A model generated the notes under the pieces. That model did no database searches. It had not been told where the DNA came from and saw only the letters and a program-made list of their open reading frames with translations. DNA of 64,000 nt from Motiliproteus sp. (GTDB lineage: Bacteria > Pseudomonadota > Gammaproteobacteria > Pseudomonadales > Balneatricaceae): positions 23,186 to 87,185 of the forward strand of contig JBFGZQ010000013.1 in the NCBI GenBank assembly GCA_041586735.1, written 5' to 3'. Every line of letters begins with the position of its first letter. Position 1 is the stretch's first letter. Shown piece after piece: positions 9,049 through 42,507 of this stretch. A program made the position numbers and the translations under genes.

Positions 9049-10473
9049 TTAGTGGCTGTCATCGGCGCCGTCATCATCCACCCCCAGCTCTTTGATCTTG
9101 CGTGTCAGAGTGTTCCGCCCCCAGCCTAGCAGCAGGGAGGCATCACGACGTCGTCCGGCGGTATGCGCCAACGCCACCTCGATCATAATGCGTTCAAACG
9201 CAGGGACCGCCTCACCAAGGATGTCGGTATTCCCCCGGCTCAAGGACTGCTCGGCCCACTGCCGCAAGCCCTGCTGCCAGTCTCCAGGAAGCGGCTGCAC
9301 CGCCTCCTCAGACAACAACTCAGGCGGCAGATCGGCAATCAACACCTCTCGACCGGATGCCATCACCGTGATCCAGCGGCAGGCGTTCTCCAGCTGGCGC
9401 ACATTACCCGGCCACTCCACCGTACACAGATAGCGCTCGGTCTCGGCGGCCAGCGATTTTGGATCAACAGCCAACTCTTCCGCTGCCCGCGCCAGGAAAT
9501 GCTGCATCAGCTTGGGAATATCTTCACGCCGGTCGCTGAGCTTGGGAATATGGATGCGGATAACGTTGAGACGATGGAACAGATCCTCGCGAAAACGCCC
9601 CTCCTTCACCAGCACCTCGAGGTTCTGATGGGTCGCGGCAATGATTCGGACGTTCACCTTGACCGGCGTATGGCCACCGACACGGTAAAACTCACCGTCT
9701 GCCAACACCCGTAGCAAGCGGGTTTGCGCTTCGGCAGGCATATCGCCGATCTCATCCAGAAACAGGGTGCCATCGTCCGCTTGCTCAAAACGACCCTTGC
9801 GCTGACTCCCCGCACCGGTAAACGCGCCTTTCTCGTGCCCGAACAGCTCGGATTCAATCAGGTCGCGCGGTATCGCGGCCATATTGAGTGGAATAAAGGG
9901 CTCCTGGCTACGCGGACTGTGCTTGTGCAACGCATGCGCAACCAGCTCCTTGCCGGTGCCCGATTCACCGTTGATCAGTACCGTAATCTTCGATTGTGAT
10001 AACCGGCCGATCGCCCGAAACACCTCCTGCATCGCCGGCGCTTCGCCGATGATCTCGGTGGCGCTTTCAACCTCCTTCGCCGTGGCATCGGCGCGCTGCT
10101 CCTGCGCATGCGCCACGGCCCGCTTCACCAGCGCCACCGCGTCATCGACATCAAAAGGCTTAGGCAGATACTCAAACGCCCCACCTTGGTAGGAGGCGAC
10201 GGCACTGTCTAGATCCGAATGCGCGGTCATGATGATCACCGGCAGATCGGGATAAGCCGCCTGAATCGTACTCAGCAGCTCTAAACCATCGATGCCAGGC
10301 ATCCTAATATCCGTTACTAGCGCCTCCGGTCGTCCGTGCTCCAGCGCTCTGAGTACCTGATCACCCGATTCAAACGAGCGGCTTTGCACCCCACCCTGCT
10401 CCAGGGCCTTCTCCAGCACCCAGCGAATCGAGCGGTCATCATCCACGATCCAGACATTCGCATCGGTTTTCAT
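9049..10473 (-). CDS. ntrC: Nitrogen regulation response regulator NtrC (sigma-54 activator)
   Basis: Start moved to ATG 10473 ([24 protein letters not shown]). It has a receiver domain (DIRMPGIDG), an AAA+ sigma-54 module ([23 protein letters not shown]) and a C-terminal HTH. A 4-bp ATGA overlap links it to ntrB. Confidence 0.95.
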
Positions 10474-11567
10474 AACTCGGTTTCCTGGCTCGGTTCTAGG
10501 GGAATATAAATCACGAACTCGGTTTGACCTGCCTGACTCTGGCATTCGATCAAGCCGTTATGCTGATTGATAATCGACTGGGCGATAGACAACCCCAACC
10601 CGGTGCCTTCCGCCCGCCCACTGATCATCGGAATGAACAGCGTCTCTTTCAACGCCTCCGGCACACCCGGACCATTATCACTAATCACCAACTGACACAC
10701 CAACCGATGACGCTCGGCCCCCAGGGTAAACTGACGAATAGCCCGGGTTCGCATACAGATCCGTGGTCGCTTCGTCACCGACTCCCGCAACGCCTGAATA
10801 CTATTACGCACGATGTTAAGCACCGCCTGGATCAGCTGCTCCTCATCGCCATTCAGCTCGGGAATACTGGGATCGTAGTCACGCAAAATCTCGATCTCTC
10901 CGGCCGTCTCGGCATTCGTGAGACTGTAGATATGCTCCAGAATCTGATGAATATTGAGTGGCTTTTTATCCAGAATCTGCCGCGGCCCCAGCATCCGATC
11001 GACCAGATTTTGCAGGCGATCCGCCTCGGTGATAATGACCTGGGTATACTCATTAAGACTGGCGTCGGGCAGCGCCCGCTCCAACAACTGCGCCGCCCCA
11101 CGGATACCACCAAGCGGGTTTTTGATCTCGTGCGCCAGACCACGAACCAAGCCTCGGGTGGCCTCCTGCTGCGCTCGTGAATCCTCCTCCCGACCCATCC
11201 GCATCAACCGATCCCGCGGCAAGATCTCCACCAGCAGGTGACCATTTTGCAGCCCCACCAGCGGCGTGACGCTGTAGTCAGCCTCGATCTCCTTACCATG
11301 CGCCAGATACAGATGCGCCTCACGCCGGGTAAAGGAGTGTCCCGTATCCAAGACATCACTAAGCACATCGTAAAATTCAGAGTGGTCCCGTATCAGTGTC
11401 AACACACTTTCGCCGGCAATCCGTTTGGCGCTGACATCAAACAGCATCTCTCCCGCCGGATTGAGATAGCGCAGACAACGATCGGCATCGAGCATCAACA
11501 CCGCACCCGATAGATTATCTAGCAATTGTTTATAGAGATTTTGCACACCAGCCTCGCAGCTCATCAT
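10470..11567 (-). CDS. ntrB: Nitrogen regulation sensor histidine kinase NtrB
   Basis: 365 aa with a PAS-like N-terminus, an H-box (LAHEIKNPLGGIRGAAQLL) and an ATPase domain (DNGPGVP..GTGLGLSIAQ). Confidence 0.9.
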   Translation of the reverse strand: MMSCEAGVQNLYKQLLDNLSGAVLMLDADRCLRYLNPAGEMLFDVSAKRIAGESVLTLIRDHSEFYDVLSDVLDTGHSFTRREAHLYLAHGKEIEADYSVTPLVGLQNGHLLVEILPRDRLMRMGREEDSRAQQEATRGLVRGLAHEIKNPLGGIRGAAQLLERALPDASLNEYTQVIITEADRLQNLVDRMLGPRQILDKKPLNIHQILEHIYSLTNAETAGEIEILRDYDPSIPELNGDEEQLIQAVLNIVRNSIQALRESVTKRPRICMRTRAIRQFTLGAERHRLVCQLVISDNGPGVPEALKETLFIPMISGRAEGTGLGLSIAQSIINQHNGLIECQSQAGQTEFVIYIPLEPSQETEL

Positions 11568-11759
11568 CTAACGGTACAACCATGGCGCGCATCCACAACA
11601 CCCTTGGCACCCAGTATCCGTCCTTATTGATAGAGGGCGCTGCAATAAACAAACCACAATCATCCTTATCAGCAACCCTGAGCCGCATCACTACAGCAGC
11701 GCAACCACGGGGACCAGGCGATGCGGCATGCAGCCCGGCAACAACCCACCAATAGACCG

Positions 11760-32990: not shown

Positions 32991-33407
32991 TCAGGTAATA
33001 TTGATCTTCACCGTCTTAGGCGACTCCTGCTTAACCTTGGGCAAATTAAGGCTGAGAACACCATTATCAAAGCCGGCCTTTACCGCCTGCGGGTCAACAT
33101 CACCGCCTACCGATAACTGCCGCATAAACTGTCCAAAATGACGTTCCTGACGAATCAAGCGACCGTCTTTTTCCTCTTTTTGCTCACTGGAGGTCTCGGC
33201 CTTGATGGTCAGCACCCCATTCTCCAACCTAACCTCGACATCCTCTTTTTTGACTCCCGGAAGATCCACCTTAATCAGATAGTTGTCATCTGTTTCGTGC
33301 ACATCGATAGCAGGCGACTTATCCGCCCCCGCATGGACGACAGGCCGGTAGAAGTCGTCAAAAAACGTATCCCCAAACAGCCGATTAAAACGTGTTAAAT
33401 TCCCCAT
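32991..33407 (-). CDS. Small heat-shock protein, Hsp20/IbpA family
   Basis: 138 aa with an alpha-crystallin domain (AIDVHETDDNYLIKVDLPGVKKEDVEVRLENGVLTIKAE...GVLSLNLPK). Confidence 0.85.
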   Translation of the reverse strand: MGNLTRFNRLFGDTFFDDFYRPVVHAGADKSPAIDVHETDDNYLIKVDLPGVKKEDVEVRLENGVLTIKAETSSEQKEEKDGRLIRQERHFGQFMRQLSVGGDVDPQAVKAGFDNGVLSLNLPKVKQESPKTVKINIT

Positions 33408-33698
33408 GATATCAGTCTCCTTGCGACCAACCCGCTATGCAAGCACAAGCTAATGTATGCGCTATAATTGTAGCGCCCTCTCGCACAGCTAGACTGAAAA
33501 GAATGCATCAACAGATGTGTTTTCTGTATCTACAATCATGCGCTCCGCGACCTCTCCGCCAGCCACCCTATGGAGACACCGAAGCAAGAGCCGCCCTGGC
33601 AAACACGCCGAGTTATTAGCACGGCCTACCCTGCCCTTCATCGCCGCAATGGGCTAAAATCGGCAACAACGTTCAGTTAACCGAGGTTAAACAGTTCC

Positions 33699-35357
33699 AT
33701 GGCTCAATTCGTCTTTACGATGCATCGGGTGGGCAAGATCGTGCCGCCCAAGCGTGAGATCCTCAAAGATATCTCGCTGTCATTCTTTCCGGGTGCCAAG
33801 ATCGGCGTACTGGGCCTCAACGGTTCTGGTAAATCCACGCTGCTGAAAATCATGGCGGGCATCGATCCGGACTTTAACGGTGAAGCACGCCCGCAACCGG
33901 GTATCAACATCGGCTATCTGGCCCAAGAGCCCCACATGGACGACAACAAAACCGTCCGCGAAGTGGTCGAAGAAGCGGTCGCCGAAGCCAAAGATGCGCT
34001 GACCCGACTCGATGAAGTCTACGCCGCGTACGCCGAGCCGGATGCCGATTTCGACAAACTGGCCGCCGAACAGGCCCGCCTAGAAAACATCATCCAGGCG
34101 GTCGACGCCCACAACATCGAACGCCAGATGGAGGTCGCCGCCGATGCCCTGCGTCTACCGGGCTGGGACGAGAAGGTTGAACACCTCTCTGGGGGCGAGC
34201 GCCGCCGCGTCGCCCTGTGCAGACTGCTGCTGTCCAAGCCCGACATGCTGCTACTCGATGAGCCCACCAACCACCTCGACGCCGAATCGGTGGCCTGGCT
34301 GGAACGCTTCCTGGTGGACTTCAACGGTACGGTGGTAGCGATCACCCACGACCGCTACTTCCTAGACAACGCTGCGGGCTGGATCTTAGAACTCGACCGC
34401 GGTCACGGCATCCCTTACGAGGGCAACTACAGCTCCTGGCTGGAGCAGAAAGACGCGCGCCTGGCGACGGAAGCCAAGCAGGAAGCCGCGCATCAAAAGA
34501 CCATCAAATCAGAACTGGAGTGGGTTCGCCAAGGATCCAAAGGGCGTCAATCCAAGTCCAAGGCGCGTTTAAAGCAGTTCGAGGAGATGAGCTCGCAGAG
34601 CTACCAGAAACGCAATGAAACTCAGGAGATCTATATTCCGCCAGGACCCCGTCTGGGCGAGAAAGTGATCGAGCTGCACAACGTCTGCAAGGCGTTTGGT
34701 GAGAAGATGCTGGTCGACAATATGAGTTTCACCATCCCACAGGGCGCAATCGTTGGCGTTATCGGCGGCAACGGTGCGGGCAAGTCCACGCTGTTCAAGA
34801 TGATCAGCGGCACAGAACAGCCCGATTCAGGCGAGGTGGTGATCGGCCAAACAGTCAAGCTCGCCCACGTAGATCAAATGCGCGAGCTTGATGGATCGAA
34901 AACCGTATTTGACGAAATATCGGACGGTCAGGACATCATTACCGTCGGTAACTATCAGGTACCCGCACGCGCCTACGCCGGTCGTTTTAACTTTAAAGGC
35001 GGCGATCAGCAAAAATTCGTCAAAGACCTGTCCGGTGGTGAGCGCAATCGTCTGCACCTGGCCAAACTGCTGAAAGAGGGTGGCAACGTGCTGCTGCTCG
35101 ACGAGCCGACCAACGACCTCGACGTCGAAACCCTGCGCGCCCTGGAAGAAGCGCTGCTGGCATTCCCCGGCTGCGCCATCGTGATCTCGCACGATCGCTG
35201 GTTCCTGGACCGGATCTCCACCCATATTCTTGCGTATGAGGGCGACTCCAAAGCCGTATTCTTTGAGGGCAACTACAGTGAGTATGAAGCCGACTTTCTA
35301 ACACGAGTCGGCGATGCTACGCCTCACAGAGTTAAGTATAAGAAGATCGATGCTTAA
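33699..35357 (+). CDS. ettA: Energy-dependent translational throttle protein EttA (ABC-F); the last 26 sense codons (35279-35354) lie beyond the shared 8-bp core and are island-derived
   Basis: 552 aa with two ABC cassettes (GLNGSGKST/LSGGERRRVAL and GGNGAGKST/LSGGERNRLHL) and no TM domain. Codon usage switches to AT-rich right after AACTACAG at 35271-35278. Confidence 0.95.
   Translation: MAQFVFTMHRVGKIVPPKREILKDISLSFFPGAKIGVLGLNGSGKSTLLKIMAGIDPDFNGEARPQPGINIGYLAQEPHMDDNKTVREVVEEAVAEAKDALTRLDEVYAAYAEPDADFDKLAAEQARLENIIQAVDAHNIERQMEVAADALRLPGWDEKVEHLSGGERRRVALCRLLLSKPDMLLLDEPTNHLDAESVAWLERFLVDFNGTVVAITHDRYFLDNAAGWILELDRGHGIPYEGNYSSWLEQKDARLATEAKQEAAHQKTIKSELEWVRQGSKGRQSKSKARLKQFEEMSSQSYQKRNETQEIYIPPGPRLGEKVIELHNVCKAFGEKMLVDNMSFTIPQGAIVGVIGGNGAGKSTLFKMISGTEQPDSGEVVIGQTVKLAHVDQMRELDGSKTVFDEISDGQDIITVGNYQVPARAYAGRFNFKGGDQQKFVKDLSGGERNRLHLAKLLKEGGNVLLLDEPTNDLDVETLRALEEALLAFPGCAIVISHDRWFLDRISTHILAYEGDSKAVFFEGNYSEYEADFLTRVGDATPHRVKYKKIDA
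35271..35278 (+). repeat. Left junction core AACTACAG (attL side)
   Basis: This identical 8-mer begins both copies of the duplicated ettA end. The sequence to its left is host, and to its right is island-like. Confidence 0.7.
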
Positions 35358-35380
35358 CGGCTCTAGACACCTGAATGACA

Positions 35381-35404
35381 AAGGGCGCACTTAGCGTCCT
35401 TTTC
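35381..35404 (+). terminator. Island-borne terminator for the chimeric ettA
   Basis: AAGGGCGC-actta-GCGTCCTT (one G-U pair) followed by TTTT, 24 nt after the stop. Confidence 0.55.
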
Positions 35405-35512
35405 TGTGGCTATGCCTGAGTTAATGGCTGCAGGGGATAGTATTTTCATCTACTTCGAATAAGATCGCTCCCATAATAGAAGAGCACTTCAAAAACCCTA
35501 TTAATGTTGATG

Positions 35513-35542
35513 TTGACATACACTTATGCATTGGCATATTTT
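35513..35542 (+). promoter_or_regulatory. Candidate sigma-70 promoter for the island cargo genes
   Basis: TTGACA-(18 nt)-TATTTT, about 70 bp upstream of the 77-aa ORF. Confidence 0.35.
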
Positions 35543-35609
35543 GACAGTGCTACCATCAGGCTGGGATTGACCTCGAAGAGCCGCCAAGGCACTTCACAAA
35601 GGACGAGAA

Positions 35610-35843
35610 ATGGACAGGAATGTTTGCTTTTATTACCGAGAAGAAATCAAGCTTGGGACCATTAAGTACAAGCATTGTGGTTCAATGCTCTCCAATCCTC
35701 AGCTGATCGCTAACGGCACGAAGTCAGAAGGCACTCTCTGGCTTCCCGTTCCAGCCTTTGTTTTATCTCTCTTTGCCTTTATTACGCTGCTTGACCATCC
35801 GCATACTGGGCGGTTTGTATCAAAATTTTTTATTAAAACATAA
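35610..35843 (+). CDS. Small membrane protein with a degenerate zinc-ribbon-like N-terminus (unknown function)
   Basis: 77 aa with an AGGA Shine-Dalgarno upstream. The N-terminus (NVCFYYREEIKLGTIKYKHCGSML) resembles the common C-x2-C..C-x2-C zinc-ribbon peptide, but two Cys positions are Tyr. One TM helix follows (LWLPVPAFVLSLFAFITLL). The gene is AT-rich. Confidence 0.55.
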   Translation: MDRNVCFYYREEIKLGTIKYKHCGSMLSNPQLIANGTKSEGTLWLPVPAFVLSLFAFITLLDHPHTGRFVSKFFIKT

Positions 35844-35861
35844 TTCATCAGGGATGATTAT

Positions 35862-36983
35862 ATGAACTTTCCAGGGAAATATTATATTCTTTGTACTGCG
35901 ATGATTTTCAGTGTCAATGCAACAGCTGCAGCATACAATACTGAAAACTGCAGTTACCTTTCTCGCGCTGATGAAACCCTACAAAAACGCATATTTGATT
36001 GGGTTTACCCGTCAACAGGAATGCGCCCTTCATACGAATCGTTTAGCTCTGTCAGGTATTGCCAAGGATTAATAAGAGAAGCCGCTAATATAGAAAAAAA
36101 TGTGAAATACGTATGCTCTTCGTTCCCAGAAAGTTATTGTAAAGACGAGAAGACCAAGTTAGAAAACAACAATACTCGTATTGATGAGCTCCTCAAAAAG
36201 GCAAGCGAATTAAAAGTAGTCGCCCAAAAAGAAGCCTTGCAAGCGAAGATCAGGAAGGACGAAGAAAAACAAAAAGATGACTTCAATGCAAGGAATACTT
36301 ATTTAGCAGAGCAAGAGCTGAAACAAAAAAAACTTTCCCAGCATAGAGAAGATATGGACCTGGCTCTTAGCGAGCAATGCTTAAGTGAAGTTGAAACCAT
36401 CAAAAGCCATGATGCTTCTATAATTATGCACTGGAATAAAACAATAAGTGATCTTGAATCAGCAGTTAAAAATGAAAACCATCGCTATGCACAACATATA
36501 TACAATAAAGAATTTCCAAAGGTAGCGAATAAGCCAGCTCTTTTAATATATTCAAGTGGTACTGATGAGTGTTTCAAATACACAGAGTACCAGAAACTAG
36601 AATCAGAAATATTTATTGAATTTTCTAGCACAGAAATAAACAAGGATAAGCTAGAGCAGATTATGAAAAATAGTAACAATCAGGCGTCTAGCATTGAATC
36701 AACTAAAAAACATAATGTAACTCCAAAAAATAAAACAGATGCTAAAACAGGTTACTTTGTGGAGTCGGAGGTGCTTTTTTGTAATACAAAGCGTCAGTTT
36801 GATGATCAGATGCTAATGCTAAGTCAGGGCCATAAAAACTATGCTTCTGGTTGTTACTCTACTTTCGGAAATATTGATGTAGTACTTATAGATTTTGGAG
36901 TTCTCGGTGCAACAGAGGTTCGATCGTTATCCAATGGAAAATCCATGTGGATTACGTCTGAGTCTCTATCTAAGTATCAATGA
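35862..36983 (+). CDS. Secreted Lys/Glu-rich coiled-coil protein with Cys-containing terminal domains (unknown function)
   Basis: 373 aa with an AGGGA Shine-Dalgarno and a signal peptide (YYILCTAMIFSVNATAAA). The central region is charged and helical, and the C-terminal part is about 80 aa of beta-rich-looking sequence. I recognise no family. Sampled lines are about 35% GC. Confidence 0.7.
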   Translation: MNFPGKYYILCTAMIFSVNATAAAYNTENCSYLSRADETLQKRIFDWVYPSTGMRPSYESFSSVRYCQGLIREAANIEKNVKYVCSSFPESYCKDEKTKLENNNTRIDELLKKASELKVVAQKEALQAKIRKDEEKQKDDFNARNTYLAEQELKQKKLSQHREDMDLALSEQCLSEVETIKSHDASIIMHWNKTISDLESAVKNENHRYAQHIYNKEFPKVANKPALLIYSSGTDECFKYTEYQKLESEIFIEFSSTEINKDKLEQIMKNSNNQASSIESTKKHNVTPKNKTDAKTGYFVESEVLFCNTKRQFDDQMLMLSQGHKNYASGCYSTFGNIDVVLIDFGVLGATEVRSLSNGKSMWITSESLSKYQ

Positions 36984-37077
36984 TACATTAGGGTACTTCA
37001 GGGCACCTCGAAAAACCCCTCTGGTATCGTCCTATGGTAAAATTCAAAAATTCACAGCCGCCTAAGCCCTAGAATCG

Positions 37078-37224
37078 ATGAAAAAACGAAGCGCTATCAA
37101 GACCGAGCTGTTTGCTGACGCACATCACCGCAAAAAGATCTATTCACTGGGCGATCCGCTGATCGAGATCCAGTCACATATTGATTTTGCGGTATTAGCA
37201 GCTGATTTCAACATAAGCAAATAA
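37078..37224 (+). pseudogene. Possible N-terminal fragment of an IS4/IS5-superfamily transposase (48 codons)
   Basis: My translation is MKKRSAIKTELFADAHHRKKIYSLGDPLIEIQSHIDFAVLAADFNISK*. The L..LGDPL..L...IDF..L pattern recalls the InsH-type transposase N-terminal domain. There is no catalytic part downstream. This is recollection only, with no search done. Confidence 0.3.
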
Positions 37225-37455
37225 GCTCATATACAACATAAAGAGAGCCTAAAAAGAGCGACCCTTTGGGGTTGGGTTGCCTCTTCCTAAAGCAGCCTCT
37301 CTATGCTCCAAAAAGCGGCTTAAAGACCCACTGCTCGGCATGCTGAAAACAGTGATTAATATGTGATAGCCGCTTAGCAACAATGCCCATAAACAAGATC
37401 GCTACTTCATAATTTCGAAATATCTATGCTTGGACAAGACCCGCGTACAGCCTGC

Positions 37456-38001
37456 TCAAGAAGCCTTCAAAAGCCTGTATACACTGGCTTTTGACAATCC
37501 ATACTCGGACATCAACCCCCTTATCAAAACCCCTTCAGAGCGCTTCTGGCGCATCTCAAGTAGCTGCTTATCATCGAGCTTTGCCTTTCTGCCAAATCCC
37601 ACGCCTTTCGCTTTTGCTGACTCAATGCCTTCCATTTGACGCTCTTTTCGCAAGTCAGTTTCGAACTCTGCAATAGCCCCTAGCATGTTGAACATGAGCT
37701 TACCTGTGGGGGTGGTTGTGTCGATGTTCTGATCCAGCACCATAAGCTCCACATTCTTATTTTCCAGTAGCTCACGGATCTGGTTGAGATGGATAGTCGA
37801 TCTAGCCAAACGATCTAGCTTTGTTATGACCAAGACATCGCCATCCCTCACATAATCAAGACACTTTTTCAGCTCAGGCCGATCAGCCGTAGTTCCTGAG
37901 CGTTTCTCCTGATACACCTTGTCACAGCCAACTAGCTTCTCCAGCTGAACATCCAATGACTGACCAACCGTACTCACCCTTGCATATCCTATTCTAGCCA
38001 T
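37456..38001 (-). CDS. Small serine recombinase (resolvase/invertase family)
   Basis: 181 aa with the catalytic-serine motif IGYARVSTVGQ, then DVLVITKLDRLARS, AIAEFE and a C-terminal HTH (GLSKASVYRLLK). Confidence 0.9.
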   Translation of the reverse strand: MARIGYARVSTVGQSLDVQLEKLVGCDKVYQEKRSGTTADRPELKKCLDYVRDGDVLVITKLDRLARSTIHLNQIRELLENKNVELMVLDQNIDTTTPTGKLMFNMLGAIAEFETDLRKERQMEGIESAKAKGVGFGRKAKLDDKQLLEMRQKRSEGVLIRGLMSEYGLSKASVYRLLKAS

Positions 38002-38057
38002 GTCTTACAATCTCTAAGAGCTTAAGATAAACGCATTATAAGACATTGAATAAGACA
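38001..38057. promoter_or_regulatory. Candidate res-like recombinase binding half-sites directly upstream of the small recombinase gene
   Basis: TGTCTTACAAT (38001-38011) faces inverted ATTATAAGACA (38035-38045) and a further TAAGACA (38051-57). A degenerate inverted TAAGATA sits at 38023-29, giving a 29-bp site. Confidence 0.4.
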
Positions 38058-38472
38058 CGCAAGAACAATAGTATCGAAACGTATACTTTTTAAGAATGGC
38101 CCTCTGGCCTTATCCTTAATGACAATTATGCAGCAGTATTAGATTACACACCTATGCTGCATAGGTGTTTAAATCGCCTTAAATCGATGGTAATAACCAC
38201 CCTTAGAGGAGAGTATGGGCTGGTGTAGAAAAGCGATTTAAACATTGTTACGCAAGGCTATAGCATGCCTAGCACAATGACTAATGCTTATCTCCAGCAA
38301 GGAAGAGTCAGTAGCTATACCCTAATAGCGCCAGACTATGAGTGCGTGTCATGGATGTAGCAAGGGGGCTACTTTAGCAATGTATTATTTTATTTGTTAT
38401 GCATTTTGCATTCACTGGTTTGGGTGTTAAGGGAAAGGGTTAGGTGGTGGAGGGTATGTATGTCGATAGCAT

Positions 38473-38605
38473 CTACGTTCCAGTAACTAGCGGAGTAACT
38501 ACCCAAGTAACTACGTTCCAGTAACTAGCAAAATAACCATCAAATTAACCATCAAATTAACCATCAAATTAACCATCAAATTAACTAACAAATTAACTAT
38601 AAAAA
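38473..38605. repeat. Array of ten about 12-bp-phased TAAC units, including TAACCATCAAAT x4 perfect
   Basis: GTAACTA occurs at 38483, 38495, 38507 and 38521 (spacing 12, 12, 14). These are followed by TAACCATCAAAT x4 (38534-38581), then TAACTAACAAAT and TAACTATAAAAA. Confidence 0.9.
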
Positions 38606-38675
38606 CCGAGTGTGGGAGGGGGGTGCGGGTAGCATTAGAGACACTCTACGCGTACATTTTTTGATCAATTTCTTT

Positions 38676-38693
38676 GTAACTTGTTGAAGTTAC
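38676..38693. other. Hairpin GTAACTT-gttg-AAGTTAC followed by a T-run
   Basis: A perfect 7-bp inverted repeat that again contains GTAAC. Confidence 0.5.
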
Positions 38694-38752
38694 TAACTAT
38701 TTTTTAGCAAAGTCCACGTAAATGGCCTACTATAAATCAATGACTTACGAGC

Positions 38753-38848
38753 GTCTCAAAATGGCCTAAAAATCGCCTCAAAAACGACCTCAAAAACGAC
38801 CTCGAAAACGATGATTCTGAGGGGTGTTTTTCGGGCTGTTTTTGTGAG
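38753..38848. repeat. Array of 12-bp CCTCAAAAACGA-type units (3 good plus 2 degenerate direct copies) facing two inverted degenerate copies
   Basis: CCTCAAAAACGA occurs at 38776 and 38788, and CCTCGAAAACGA at 38800. Degenerate copies lie at 38753-64 and 38765-75. Inverted GTGTTTTTCGGG (38824-35) and CTGTTTTTGTGAG (38836-48) face them. Confidence 0.85.
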
Positions 38849-39254
38849 CAAAATACCCTCGTCAGTGACCTCCGTGGTGTGAACTACCTTTTGATATCGG
38901 TGCATGTGCTGTATGGGCGTTTTAAGCACTTTTAAGAGGGGTCTGAGTCGTACCTATACAAACGGGTAGGGTAACGTCAAACCACGGTTTAAATGTCAAC
39001 TGAGGGGCCTTAAAGGCACTTCTACGGTGGTAGATATCACTAGGGTCTTACTCTCTCGTAATTTTAGAGCACGAGTCTTAAACCCACCTTGATTACCACC
39101 ATTATATTTTGGTGTATTAGTCTAGAGTGATCAAGCAAAGAGGTTGTTAAGCGAATAGCTTAGACAGTAATAGCGCTCACCACTAGGCTAGACTGTCATA
39201 TCTAATGATTCCTATCTAATCTGGCAGCAATTACCTTAATGTTTTTGATGCATT

Positions 39255-40919
39255 TCAGGGGGTGAATGATTTGATTGCAACCGAGAGGTCTTTGCTAGCC
39301 AAGCTAATTGCTTTAGCCTCCTCATACAGGTCTTTAGTATCGGCTTCTATTGATGCTGCATCAGCATACCGAGGGCTATCTATCCCTTCATCTTCGCAAA
39401 CATCCTTTCCAACGGAACCGGCATACCAGAAAAACCAGTGACCGTCTTTGAGAGTTATGACGTATGTGTCTGGAGAATGAACTTCCAGCCTACCTAGATA
39501 TGAAAGAACGAACTGCCTTAGCCTTACCCTATCAGACCTAAGATCGTCATAGACGTATCGTGCCTCGCTAAAGCTAAGTAACTGCTTCGACTCAACCTCC
39601 AAGCCTTGCAGCTCGTCTTCTAGCAAGGCTCTTTGATTGGCTGCATCCTCGGCAACTAGCTTAGCTTTTTCACTAAGTGAGGCAGAGGTACTAAAATACT
39701 GTTCCGCCGCTTTATCCTCGCGTTGCTTCAACTCCTCGATCTTAAATTTCAATGATTCAATCGTATCCGCTGTTTCTCCCGTCCAATCGGTTCCCTGATT
39801 GCGTAAAGATCGCAACATTCCTCTAACCACTTCCATTTCTAATCGCAGATACGGTACCCAAGGCAAAGAACACCCATTTTTAGCTAAACGCCCCGAGCAC
39901 ACCACGTAGCACACCCATTTCACACCAGACTTCACCCGCCTATAGTGAAGAGGGCAACCACATTCATTACAGTAAATTTTCCGCTGAAAAACGTTTGCCG
40001 AATCCTGGCTATTACCCGTCCGACCTTTGTTCAGCCTATTCTGCTTTGAGATCTGTTTGATTCTTGAGTGCTGCTCCATAGTTATGATCGCAGGATAGAA
40101 ACCATCTATGGGCGGCAACTCCTTACCCTCTAACCCCCTATGCGGGATGTACTGACCTGCTAGTGACGGGTTAAGCATAATTTTTCGAACAGCCCCTTTA
40201 CTCCAAGAGGTAGGATTGCGCTCACCAGTCTCCCTGTTAATCCTGCCATAACCAAACGTAGGAACACTTTCTGCGTTTAAAACATTAGTGATATGTACAG
40301 CCCCCTTACCCTGATTCAGGTAAAGATCGACCATACGCTCAACCACAGCTTTACGCTCTGGGTTAAAGACCCAGTTGTTCTGTTCGTCCAGATCAAGCCA
40401 CTTAGGAGCTATACCACGATGCTTTTTCTTTCCCTCTCGGATGGCCTTATGAGCCTTCTGAGCACGGTCTGACTTAGTAGCACTCTCATCATATGCTCTT
40501 TGCATCGAGGCTATTGCCATGAAGAGTAAGCCAGGATTTATTGAGATTGTTTCTCTACTGTAACTTGTTGGCTCACCGATCAGAGTGGTGATAATCACTC
40601 CAGCTTGAACGATCTGAGTGAACTGGGAGAATGCATTCAACACCTCCTCACGTGACAACCTATCAAGTGACTCTGATAAAAGGATGCAAGGGGTCTTGAT
40701 CCTCCCAGCGTTCAAGCAATCTAAGAACACCCCTAATCGACCGTTTACACTGTTATCCCCGTGATAACCACTAAGACCTAAGTCAACATAACGCTCGGGA
40801 TCAATCAGGGTAAGGTTATAATTGTCTGCATACTCAACAGCTCGTTCAATTTGACGCTGAATACCGCCACCAAGCCGCTGCTTATCGCTACTGATACGGG
40901 CGTAAAGGTACGCGTCCAT
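39255..40919 (-). CDS. Large serine recombinase (integrase)
   Basis: 554 aa. It has an N-terminal resolvase domain with the catalytic Ser in LYARISSDKQ, a recombinase domain, a Cys-rich zinc-ribbon region (CNECGCPLH..CSGRLAKNGC), a coiled coil (KFKIEELKQREDKAAEQ...) and an acidic C-terminus. Confidence 0.9.
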   Translation of the reverse strand: MDAYLYARISSDKQRLGGGIQRQIERAVEYADNYNLTLIDPERYVDLGLSGYHGDNSVNGRLGVFLDCLNAGRIKTPCILLSESLDRLSREEVLNAFSQFTQIVQAGVIITTLIGEPTSYSRETISINPGLLFMAIASMQRAYDESATKSDRAQKAHKAIREGKKKHRGIAPKWLDLDEQNNWVFNPERKAVVERMVDLYLNQGKGAVHITNVLNAESVPTFGYGRINRETGERNPTSWSKGAVRKIMLNPSLAGQYIPHRGLEGKELPPIDGFYPAIITMEQHSRIKQISKQNRLNKGRTGNSQDSANVFQRKIYCNECGCPLHYRRVKSGVKWVCYVVCSGRLAKNGCSLPWVPYLRLEMEVVRGMLRSLRNQGTDWTGETADTIESLKFKIEELKQREDKAAEQYFSTSASLSEKAKLVAEDAANQRALLEDELQGLEVESKQLLSFSEARYVYDDLRSDRVRLRQFVLSYLGRLEVHSPDTYVITLKDGHWFFWYAGSVGKDVCEDEGIDSPRYADAASIEADTKDLYEEAKAISLASKDLSVAIKSFTP

Positions 40920-40969
40920 AACTCACTCTCCCCAGAAGATGAGATAGACAATAGCATGTTAGAATGTAT

Positions 40970-41056
40970 AACTACAGCGAGTACGAAGCCGACCTCGTGA
41001 CTCGTATCGGCGACACCACGCCACACCGGGTCAAATACAAAAAGATCGACGCGTAA
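40970..41056 (+). pseudogene. ettA: Displaced original 3' end of ettA (attR side)
   Basis: It reads NYSEYEADLVTRIGDTTPHRVKYKKIDA*, with GC3-rich host-like codons. It is collinear with 35271-35357 and followed by the original terminator. No start codon or upstream reading frame exists. Confidence 0.85.
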
Positions 41057-41078
41057 CCACCCGCACATCCGCATCCAC

Positions 41079-41112
41079 AGGGCGCTAACACACTATATAG
41101 CGCCCTTTTTTA
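41079..41112 (+). terminator. Orphaned original ettA terminator
   Basis: AGGGCGCTA-(10 nt)-TAGCGCCCT followed by TTTTTT, 23 nt after the displaced stop codon. Confidence 0.75.
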
Positions 41113-41250
41113 TCTCTGAGCCATCGTCCTGCGTTCTTATGTACCACGACCTATTGCGTACCACCACCTCAAGTTCAGCCACCCCCATCTGAGCCCGCTC
41201 CAGGCATAGGCTGCTATACCTTGAGATAAGGATACAGATGGATTCGAGCA

Positions 41251-42507
41251 ATGGAACACAGCCTGCAGCATCTACTGTTACTAGGATCGGCACTGGCAAT
41301 CGGCCTGCTCATCGGCGTTGAACGCGGCTGGAGCTCTCGCGACCTTGCAGACGGCAAGCGTATGGCAGGACTGCGGACATTTGGGCTGACCGGCTTGCTT
41401 GGCGGACTATCAGGCCTGCTGACCCAGCTGCTCGGTGAGCTTATTCTCGCCACCGGGCTTGCAGCCATCGCCGCGCTAGTCATCACCGCCTATCTGAGTA
41501 ACAGACGTTACAGCGCCAACATTAGCGCCACCACCCATGTCGCCATGCTCACCACATTTTTACTCGGTGCCTTAGCAGGACTGGATCAGGTAATCATCGC
41601 CGCCGCCTGCGCGGTGATCACCACGCTACTACTGCGCTGCAAACGCTTTCTACATCGGCTACTACTGCAATTATCCCAACCCGAACTCAACGCCGGGCTT
41701 CAGCTGCTCATTATCTCTCTGGTGCTATTACCGGTCTTGCCAAATAAGGGCTACGGCCCCTGGCAAGCACTAAACCCCTATGAGATCTGGTGGATGGTAG
41801 TCCTGATCGCAGCAATCTCTTTTATCGGCTACTTTTTGATCAGAATAATGGGCGCCCAGCGTGGTATTTTAATGACCGGGCTCGCAGGCGGGCTGCTTTC
41901 ATCAACCGCATTGACGCTGCAGTTATCAAGGCTCGCATACGCCCATCCTGCCCTACAACGCCCGTGCTCTGTCGGTATATTAACGGCATGCGGAGTGATG
42001 TTTATTCGGGTAACGCTGATAGCGGGACTGATCAATCCAGCACTGATCATTAAACTTTATATCCCAATGATCACCATGTCAGCGGTAGTTTTTAGCTGCG
42101 CCACGCTCATTTTCCTTCAAGAAAAGAGCACAACCAGCGCCAACCCCGCTCCGTCAAGAAACCCCCTGGAGCTCGCACCCGCACTGGTATTTGGCTTGCT
42201 GTTAGCGGCAGTCGCTCTGCTAAGCCAGGCGATGCGCGAATGGATGGGAGACGCTGGTATTCTGCTACTGGCGGCAGCCTCGGGAATCGCCGATGTCGAT
42301 GCAATCAACCTCACCCTCTCCAGAATGGCAAAAAGCGACATCCAACTAGAGACTGCAACTCAGGGAATCATTCTGGCAAGTGCGTCCAACACCCTACTCA
42401 AAGGCGGACTCGCTGTGTTTTCTGGAGGAGTGATCATGATTCGCTGGATAACGCTGCCACTACTGCTAGCAGCGATCAGCGGCTTGCTGTGCATCTGGCT
42501 ACAATGA
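41251..42507 (+). CDS. MgtC/SapB-family N-terminal domain fused to a DUF4010-type membrane domain
   Basis: 418 aa and polytopic. The N-terminus (LLLLGSALAIGLLIGVERGWS...AGLRTFGLTGLLGG) is MgtC-like. Confidence 0.65.
   Translation: MEHSLQHLLLLGSALAIGLLIGVERGWSSRDLADGKRMAGLRTFGLTGLLGGLSGLLTQLLGELILATGLAAIAALVITAYLSNRRYSANISATTHVAMLTTFLLGALAGLDQVIIAAACAVITTLLLRCKRFLHRLLLQLSQPELNAGLQLLIISLVLLPVLPNKGYGPWQALNPYEIWWMVVLIAAISFIGYFLIRIMGAQRGILMTGLAGGLLSSTALTLQLSRLAYAHPALQRPCSVGILTACGVMFIRVTLIAGLINPALIIKLYIPMITMSAVVFSCATLIFLQEKSTTSANPAPSRNPLELAPALVFGLLLAAVALLSQAMREWMGDAGILLLAAASGIADVDAINLTLSRMAKSDIQLETATQGIILASASNTLLKGGLAVFSGGVIMIRWITLPLLLAAISGLLCIWLQ

Follow-up and report, generated by a model that had tools for sequence, protein, structure and literature searches.

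A probable large serine recombinase island in the 3′ end of ettA that carries a diverged replacement for the gene end

The 64,000-nt stretch of DNA analyzed here, from a marine Motiliproteus sp. (the window; GenBank assembly GCA_041586735.1, contig JBFGZQ010000013.1, positions 23,186 to 87,185) contains two different versions of the 3′ end of ettA, the gene for an ABC-F translation factor. One of them completes the gene. The other lies downstream, at the far side of a low-GC region that ends with the gene for a large serine recombinase (LSR). How did ettA come to use one of these ends, and where does the other come from? We consider it highly probable that the region in question (35271–40977, ~5.7 kb) is an integrative island of the LSR, with its bacterial attachment site (attB) in ettA, and that the island restores the end of the gene it enters. 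The features on which this reading is built are listed below in window coordinates; attP denotes the attachment site of the element, attL and attR the left and right junctions, and GC3 the GC content at third codon positions.

33699–35270, plus strand: host-derived ettA body, codons 1–524, up to the crossover; 83–88% nucleotide identity to Motiliproteus-like ettA
35271–35357, plus strand: surrogate ettA terminus, island-borne and in use, 28 codons and stop; island GC3, 64–67/87 nt identical to relatives
35271–35278, plus strand: putative attL core AACTACAG, the first block common to both junctions
35380–35408, plus strand: island-borne terminator-like hairpin, AAAGGGCGC/GCGUCCUUU with a short U-run; RNA fold z = −1.9
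39255–40919, minus strand: LSR (P0001), 554 amino acids, presumed integrase; Resolvase, Recombinase and Zn_ribbon_recom domains
40920–40969, no strand: putative left arm of attP, 50 nt, unrelated to ettA; the equivalent spacer is ~62 nt in two other loci (L003 and L024, below)
40970–41056, plus strand: displaced host ettA terminus, an orphan lacking a gene body upstream; relatives match it at 75–78/87 nt and 27–28/28 amino acids
40970–40977, plus strand: putative attR core AACTACAG, the second copy of the shared block
41079–41112, plus strand: the host's original ettA terminator, GGGCGCUA stem and U6 (UUUUUU); RNA fold z = −4.6

Two copies of the ettA end

The 3′ end in use (35271–35357) and the orphan end (40970–41056) are collinear, ungapped, in-frame 87-nt sequences that share the start AACTACAG and the stop TAA and are identical at 66 of 87 positions. 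The encoded peptides, NYSEYEADFLTRVGDATPHRVKYKKIDA and NYSEYEADLVTRIGDTTPHRVKYKKIDA respectively, agree at 24 of 28 residues. The four substitutions (F/L, L/V, V/I and A/T) are conservative, and natural EttA proteins vary at the same positions. When the left 87-mer was placed without gaps at all positions on both strands of the window, its best other match was 43/87, and the pair was also recovered by an independent repeat search of the window (family D2). To the left of each AACTACAG, the flanks of the two junctions show no similarity. The first-pass annotation of this locus had described the paired copies, their nucleotide and peptide differences and their unrelated left flanks, and each of these points was confirmed.

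Mismatches between the copies are distributed over codon positions 1, 2 and 3 as 5, 0 and 16. Nei-Gojobori counts give differences at 17 of 18.2 synonymous sites (proportion pS 0.94) but at only 4 of 65.8 nonsynonymous sites (pN 0.06), and the longest exact run common to both copies is 9 nt. Saturated synonymous divergence with a preserved peptide indicates that the copies parted long ago and that both were under selection for the same peptide; a recent local duplication is thereby excluded. Composition separates the copies as well. GC3 is 0.46 in the left copy, equal to that of the LSR gene (0.46), and 0.79 in the right copy, with 0.72 in the ettA body, in keeping with the earlier description of the right copy as host-like and the left as island-like. 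The interval 35358–40969 has 43% GC, compared with 58% for the ettA body and ~57% for the host, and is the sole GC trough in the 64 kb. Taken together, the pS, pN and GC3 values indicate that the surrogate end evolved with the element under purifying selection.

The product of 33699–35357 is EttA (NF008775 equivalog, 978.7 bits, cutoff 599; TIGR03719, 967 bits, cutoff 807, positions 1–550), and the chimeric protein is full length at 552 amino acids. Upstream of the orphan copy there is no ettA body. The earlier statement that it has no upstream reading frame needs correction, since an in-frame ATG lies two codons upstream and an in-frame stop five codons upstream, giving an open reading frame (ORF) of at most 30 amino acids.

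About 25 nt past the stop of each copy lies a 9-bp hairpin with a U-run. These were found by RNA folding, which was used in place of a simple terminator scan that had overlooked both hairpins (loop length, mismatch). As the first-pass annotation had proposed, there is a terminator after each copy and the host's is the stronger by z score; the island hairpin is less clean, with a G-U pair and the run UUUUCU. Its spacing from the stop equals that of the ettA terminators of relatives.

Polarity was established from island-free relatives. The EttA proteins nearest to that of the window belong to Motiliproteus metagenome-assembled genomes (MAGs) and isolates. Genomes with an uninterrupted ettA that ends like 40970–41056, which had been suggested as a check, were found among them. 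In L005–L008, EttA is 97–98% identical in amino acids and the ettA body 87–88% identical in nucleotides to the window; in the NCBI MAG GCA_004195305.1 (L090), the body is 85% identical. The last 87 nt of ettA in these loci match the orphan copy at 75–78 of 87 positions and the in-use copy at 64–67, and their EttA C-termini, LV[ET]RIGDTT, are orphan-like. Given that the uninterrupted ends of relatives match the right copy, the host's own end is the right copy, displaced from its gene, and the left copy came with the island. In L090, ettA is followed by a terminator homologous to that at 41079–41112 and then by the start of an MgtC/DUF4010 gene, which is the right-flank gene of the window. The L090 sequence over the site, ttcgagggcAACTACAGCGAGTACGAAGC, corresponds to the left flank of the window joined to the right copy, and the orphan end is 90% identical to L090, with the gene body at 85%. 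To judge by its sequence, L090 is a true empty site, though one from another species; the empty-site comparisons are all cross-species, at 83–88% nucleotide identity.

In L005–L008, the loci closest by EttA protein, ettA and the MgtC/DUF4010 gene are separated by an opposite-strand gene of 258 amino acids with no Pfam match (L006:5016–5792). This gene is absent from the window (41057–41250) and from L090.

The recombinase, its homologues and the attachment sites

The LSR gene had been reported as encoding 554 amino acids and starting 50 bp inside the right junction, and this was borne out, with the ATG 50 nt from the junction. The protein has a catalytic domain (PF00239, 7e-11, residues 3–157), a Recombinase domain (PF07508, 1.6e-10, residues 187–293) and a zinc ribbon (PF13408, 1.4e-5) that is marginal at 25.8 bits against a cutoff of 25.3. 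In an alignment of the family, R8 and S10 (in YARISSDKQ) are nearly invariant across 13 homologues, and C317, C320, C341 and C350 are invariant. The protein matches the integrase family phrog_95 (1.7e-58). A profile of the LSR family matches the structures of the SPbeta LSR (9dxd/9dxh) with E = 2.7e-18; profile positions 163–493 align to residues 162–512, a range over the recombinase and zinc-ribbon domains that includes the coiled coil of those structures. No pairwise similarity between the two LSRs was detected by phmmer. Weak matches to the CcrC (3.2e-8) and CcrA (2.4e-4) models were far below cutoff.

Close homologues are rare. A word-indexed search of 5.8 billion protein clusters returned the LSR itself, one protein (P0002) at 44% identity and then none above 37%; in an exhaustive HMMER search of 1.84 billion cluster representatives, P0002 scored 464 bits and the next match 211 bits. 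P0002 is 44% identical to the LSR over 526 amino acids and is encoded on a contig (L003) from an unrelated Joint Genome Institute (JGI) metagenome, 3300037587, and a Logan run, SRR12613195. On the opposite strand, ~62 nt upstream of the P0002 ATG, L003 encodes NYSEYEEDFQARVGDKNPHRVKYKRLSS*, an orphan ettA end that likewise starts at AACTACAG; a stop lies two codons upstream of it. The same 8-nt start beside a 44%-identical LSR indicates that the two LSRs share one target site. The search for homologues of the 554-residue protein and for their target genes, another check put forward in the first-pass annotation, thus placed P0002 beside an orphan ettA end.

We also examined 80 distant LSR loci (28–37% identical) with 10-kb flanks, taken from a scan of genome contigs. 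None of these 80 loci has an orphan ettA end beside the LSR, indicating that ettA specificity is confined to the small P0001/P0002 clade. An intact ettA near the LSR of L035 was set aside as coincidental; it lies 7.6 kb away in the wrong orientation. A different target was found in a Desulfovibrionaceae MAG (CAXXNS010000016.1; L024:9662–18028). Here a 33%-identical LSR (9980–11737) belongs to a ~7.7-kb island in a UPF0047 gene. An orphan 3′ part of UPF0047 lies 62 nt before the LSR start, and the far end of the island holds a complete UPF0047 gene. The two end copies are 83% identical over 248 nt, and the GC fraction of the island is 0.60 compared with 0.67–0.69 in the flanks. On the evidence of this locus, the strategy of restoring the end of the target gene extends beyond the ettA clade.

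According to two published accounts, LSRs recombine an attP of ~50 bp with an attB of ~40 bp by a 2-nt staggered cut and do not require long homology (PMC12286644, PMC3783163). The window has the LSR trait of a short attP beside the integrase gene, with left arms that are unrelated and the shared core AACTACAG. If the island ends are joined, attP would consist of 40930–40969, AACTACAG and 35279–35320 (...GCATGTTAGAATGTAT-AACTACAG-TGAGTATGAAGCCGACTTTCTAACA...). The predicted attB, 87 nt before the stop, corresponds to the stretch of ettA that encodes VFFEG-NYSEYEAD (...GTATTCTTTGAGGGC-AACTACAG-CGAGTACGAAGCCGACCTCGTGAC...). The likeness of the right arms of these two sites arises solely from the ettA end encoded in the attP arm.

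By parsimony, the crossover dinucleotide most probably lies within AACTACAG. A crossover to the left of AACTACAG is impossible. Position 9 after the junction start is T in attL and C in attR, and all relatives have AGC; together with codon usage, this points to T as the island base and C as the host base, and so to a crossover in AACTACAG. A private synonymous T in the host would instead allow a crossover in the next identical block, GAGTA. Of the earlier proposal that attB is inside ettA with crossover in or next to the shared block, the location of attB in ettA stands, and the assignment to AACTACAG is one of parsimony, with GAGTA as the possible alternative.

Proposed mechanism and competing explanations

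We propose that the LSR recombines the attP of the element, directly upstream of the LSR gene, with an attB in the ettA coding sequence. The attP arm far from the LSR gene would be a long-diverged, element-adapted ettA 3′ end with its own terminator. Integration would then fuse the host ettA body in frame to the surrogate, yielding a 552-residue EttA with 4 conservative changes, and would leave the last 28 codons and the terminator of the host as a silent orphan beside the LSR gene. Transcription of ettA would run into the surrogate end and stop at the island hairpin. As a target, the conserved coding motif VFFEG-NYSEYE would offer a site available in many hosts, and the carried surrogate end would remove the fitness cost of this site. 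E. coli ΔettA is viable with a conditional fitness defect (PMC11282234), which makes the earlier wording of ettA as "essential-like" an overstatement; a conditional defect would be enough to explain selection for a surrogate end. This LSR presumably catalyzed the integration, and the chimeric EttA is presumably functional; the element may still be mobile at present. The central claim of the first-pass annotation, an LSR island in the 3′ end of ettA with a surrogate terminus and terminator, gains support from the empty sites and from the recurrence beside P0002.

Several observations weigh against this interpretation. The reconstructed exact EttA, which would indicate a same-species empty site, was not found in a collection of 15 billion proteins. 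Two viral and two metagenome scans, run with the clade alignment and the pattern GAATNNNNAACTACAGYGAGTAYGAAG, gave no match, although the metagenome scans missed even the JGI contig of L003 (also with an exact DNA-pattern match) and are uninformative as negatives. Neither a circular attP junction nor a repaired site was found in the accessible collections. Support for the attL junction comes solely from the assembly that contains the window. The reconstructed attP and attB show weak dyad symmetry (11/24); the best dyad in attP, TGTTAGAA...TTCTAACA, also of weak symmetry, is centered 2 nt to the right of AACTACAG. No recombination directionality factor was recognizable in the island, and LSR excision needs such a separate factor (PMC12286644, PMC3783163). 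The cargo looks partly decayed, with a fragment of an IS5-family transposase gene and 1.25 kb free of ORFs (see below), and the element may be stranded.

A further difficulty comes from an island-free, more distant relative (L089; EttA 92% identical in amino acids). Its natural end, ...YLTRVGDATPHRVKYKKIDA, uses GC-rich codons (L089:2545–2631; Logan SRR29495060). It matches the island copy at 26/28 amino acids and 73/87 nt and is slightly further from the orphan copy, at 23/28 and 69/87, so the surrogate resembles at least one natural allele. The surrogate end probably descends from the ettA of a related lineage, and L089 may represent the lineage from which it was captured or a past allelic replacement. 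That the surrogate is nearer to the L089 end than to the host's own end is the basis for a wider and rather unlikely idea, in which surrogate ends act as vehicles of allelic replacement and EttA C-termini, like the ends of other LSR targets, are element-seeded mosaics. If so, islands lost by deletion and not by precise excision would leave the foreign gene end behind. As a separate observation, synteny downstream of ettA differs in L089, with DUF5610 in place of MgtC and RIO1.

The L089 C-terminus could also be taken to mean that polarity is reversed, with the AT-rich end native and the GC-rich end foreign, or that an 87-nt duplication arose in situ and was followed by insertion. We find either account barely credible. 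The closest relatives, with bodies 85–88% identical, have the orphan-like end, its terminator and the same downstream gene; the in-use copy has island codon usage; the orphan arrangement recurs beside a homologous LSR in L003; and saturated synonymous divergence argues against duplication in situ. An assembly or binning artefact that falsely joined ettA to low-GC foreign DNA deserves consideration because the source of the window is a metagenome-assembled contig, because a single contig contains the attL junction and the chimeric EttA (P0111), and because two Logan contigs stop at 38556. This explanation, too, is extremely improbable. The attR side is reproduced at 99.98–100% identity in two independent Logan assemblies (SRR29257532, SRR29257533), whose contigs both end inside a 12-nt tandem array, a trivial cause of breakage; position 38556 was accordingly rejected as a biological boundary. 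The longest exact run of 9 nt is too short to mislead an assembler, and a chimera would not yield an in-frame fusion to a conserved surrogate end. Another integrator, namely the 181-residue serine recombinase of the island, IS5 or a lost tyrosine integrase, with the LSR as a passenger, is very unlikely. A second serine recombinase and an insertion sequence fragment are indeed present, and the LSR has a small resolvase nearby in L003, in L024 and in 19 of the 80 distant loci. However, the junction lies 50–62 nt upstream of the LSR start in three independent elements, and the small resolvase is at variable distance and only 34% conserved. The expected signature of IS5 would be terminal inverted repeats with duplication of the target, which a diverged 87-nt copy of a gene end does not fit. 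The sites used by small resolvases and invertases lie within one molecule, and these enzymes are not known to serve as integrases.

Integration by the LSR is also compatible with a stranded remnant, an insertion that the LSR made and that is now fixed and immobile. This possibility competes with present mobility alone, and we regard it as a serious one, though not the likelier state. Decay of the cargo, including the IS5 fragment and the ORF-free stretch, would fit such a remnant, as would the lack of recognized directionality factor, transfer or replication genes and of an observed circle junction or same-species empty site. Against it, the LSR ORF is intact with its catalytic residues, and the att junctions and the orphan are undecayed. 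The higher identity of the orphan to L090 (90%) than of the body (85%) suggests a recent event.

Known systems and the content of the island

Phage 21 and e14 insert into the 3′ part of icd in E. coli by means of tyrosine integrases, and a diverged end carried by the element restores a full-length, functional product. The arrangement described here resembles theirs in its location in the 3′ part of a conserved gene, the surrogate end in frame and the orphan original end. It differs in the target and in the enzyme, an LSR, and in an 87-nt surrogate accompanied by a terminator. SCCmec elements of staphylococci integrate through CcrAB at the 3′ end of rlmH (orfX), where replacement is limited to the last few codons, inside a repeat of ~15–18 nt. 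They likewise are LSR islands in the 3′ end of a conserved translation-related gene whose frame is kept, but they use two Ccr subunits in many types and have large cargo. In the window, by comparison, a long-diverged copy takes the place of 28 codons together with a terminator, and there is a single LSR.

The SPbeta LSR SprA (YokA) is the closest solved relative of the window's LSR, by profile search only, and has the same domain order. SPbeta splits spsM, which is reconstituted only on excision. Unlike ettA in the window, spsM remains split until then. The L024 island shares with that of the window a homologous LSR, a junction at 62 nt, an orphan end by the LSR, a surrogate at the far side, a co-oriented resolvase and lower GC; its target, a UPF0047 gene, is different, and its surrogate, at 248 nt, is the longer of the two and has diverged less (83%).

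In a published LSR catalogue, the majority of clusters are specific to a single target gene cluster, and distantly related LSRs may share one conserved attB in a coding sequence (Durrant et al., 2022; PMC10083194). P0001 and P0002, 44% identical and at the same ettA site, fit this shared-attB pattern. Target genes are described there as disrupted, in contrast to the restored gene seen here. Neither ettA nor ABC-F is mentioned in the main text or the available supplements of that study, nor is ettA in the available Integrase-On-Demand supplements. No literature that links ettA or yjjK with serine-recombinase integration was found. An island named "12.DUF756|ettA" in a 2026 preprint was taken, from its naming style only and unverified, as intergenic beside ettA.

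Among 5,422 E. coli genomes, none showed a second, diverged ettA end, and the ettA end occurs once per chromosome. Extra ettA copies in E. coli are plasmid-borne (~37 plasmids) and 80–90% identical to the chromosomal gene. In one of these plasmids, pfosA3 (L092; NZ_CP047005.1, 73523–75115), ettA is cut at its 3′ end by IS1 within a foreign chromosomal segment containing dimethyl sulfoxide reductase genes, and is unrelated to serine-recombinase integration. With two clade members in 1.84 billion representatives and no case in the E. coli genomes, the idea of ettA as a general integration hot spot, touched on in the earlier annotation, is not supported.

At this locus ettA appears as a previously unreported LSR target, with an unusually clear, long-diverged surrogate end and terminator; the trick of replacing a gene end was known, and no new mechanism is involved. 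For an LSR clade that is both rare, with two members in ~15 billion proteins, and highly divergent, the locus provides a natural attB/attP pair that is well resolved and potentially useful for integrase mining. Serine-integrase elements, too, can bring a long-diverged gene-end replacement, as in the tyrosine-integrase cases at icd. The locus also illustrates clearly how a mobile element can take a conserved coding motif as its target and yet avoid the cost of losing the gene. Our understanding of EttA and of LSR mechanism is unchanged by the finding.

Within the island, between the surrogate end and the LSR gene, we recognized the following additional features.

35610–35843, plus strand: hypothetical ORF of 77 amino acids from the ORF list, candidate cargo; no Pfam, NCBIfam, PADLOC or PHROG match
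35862–36983, plus strand: ORFan of 373 amino acids; ~35% GC, GC3 0.33, no family match
37076–37224, plus strand: IS5-family transposase fragment; 79% nucleotide identity to plasmid IS5-like transposase genes
37456–38001, minus strand: small serine recombinase of resolvase/invertase type, 181 amino acids, co-oriented with the LSR; Pfam Resolvase (2.9e-43) and HTH_7
38468–38605, no strand: ORF-free tandem repeats, 38 nt twice and then TAACCATCAAAT five times
38776–38811, no strand: second tandem array, CCTCAAAAACGA three times, from the sequence and a repeat search

The 373-residue ORFan has a hydrophobic, signal-like N-terminus and a K/E-rich middle, and a search of 5.8 billion protein clusters for homologues returned only itself. 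The transposase fragment is an ISAzo41-like remnant that preserves the first 48 codons only, in a 48-residue ORF, a sign of decay. No replication, transfer, phage or defence genes were recognized in the island by Pfam, NCBIfam, PADLOC and PHROG scans, and an Rfam search over 33000–42000 gave no match. The element is thus a minimal island, perhaps a decaying one.

The tandem arrays, which a repeat search reported as families D1 and D3, occupy part of the 1.25 kb without ORFs that separates the small resolvase from the LSR. The 12-nt arrays look like candidate iterons or protein-binding sites; no rep or par gene is present in the island.

The 181-residue recombinase matches the DNA invertase family phrog_125 (2.6e-62). 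In the window, in L003 (4647–5210) and in L024 (12051–12719), the LSR is followed downstream by a small resolvase in the same orientation; the resolvases of the window and L003 are only 34% identical. Among the 80 distant LSR loci, 19 have a small resolvase within 10 kb, in varying position and orientation. The LSR and the small serine recombinase might conceivably form a functional two-recombinase module.

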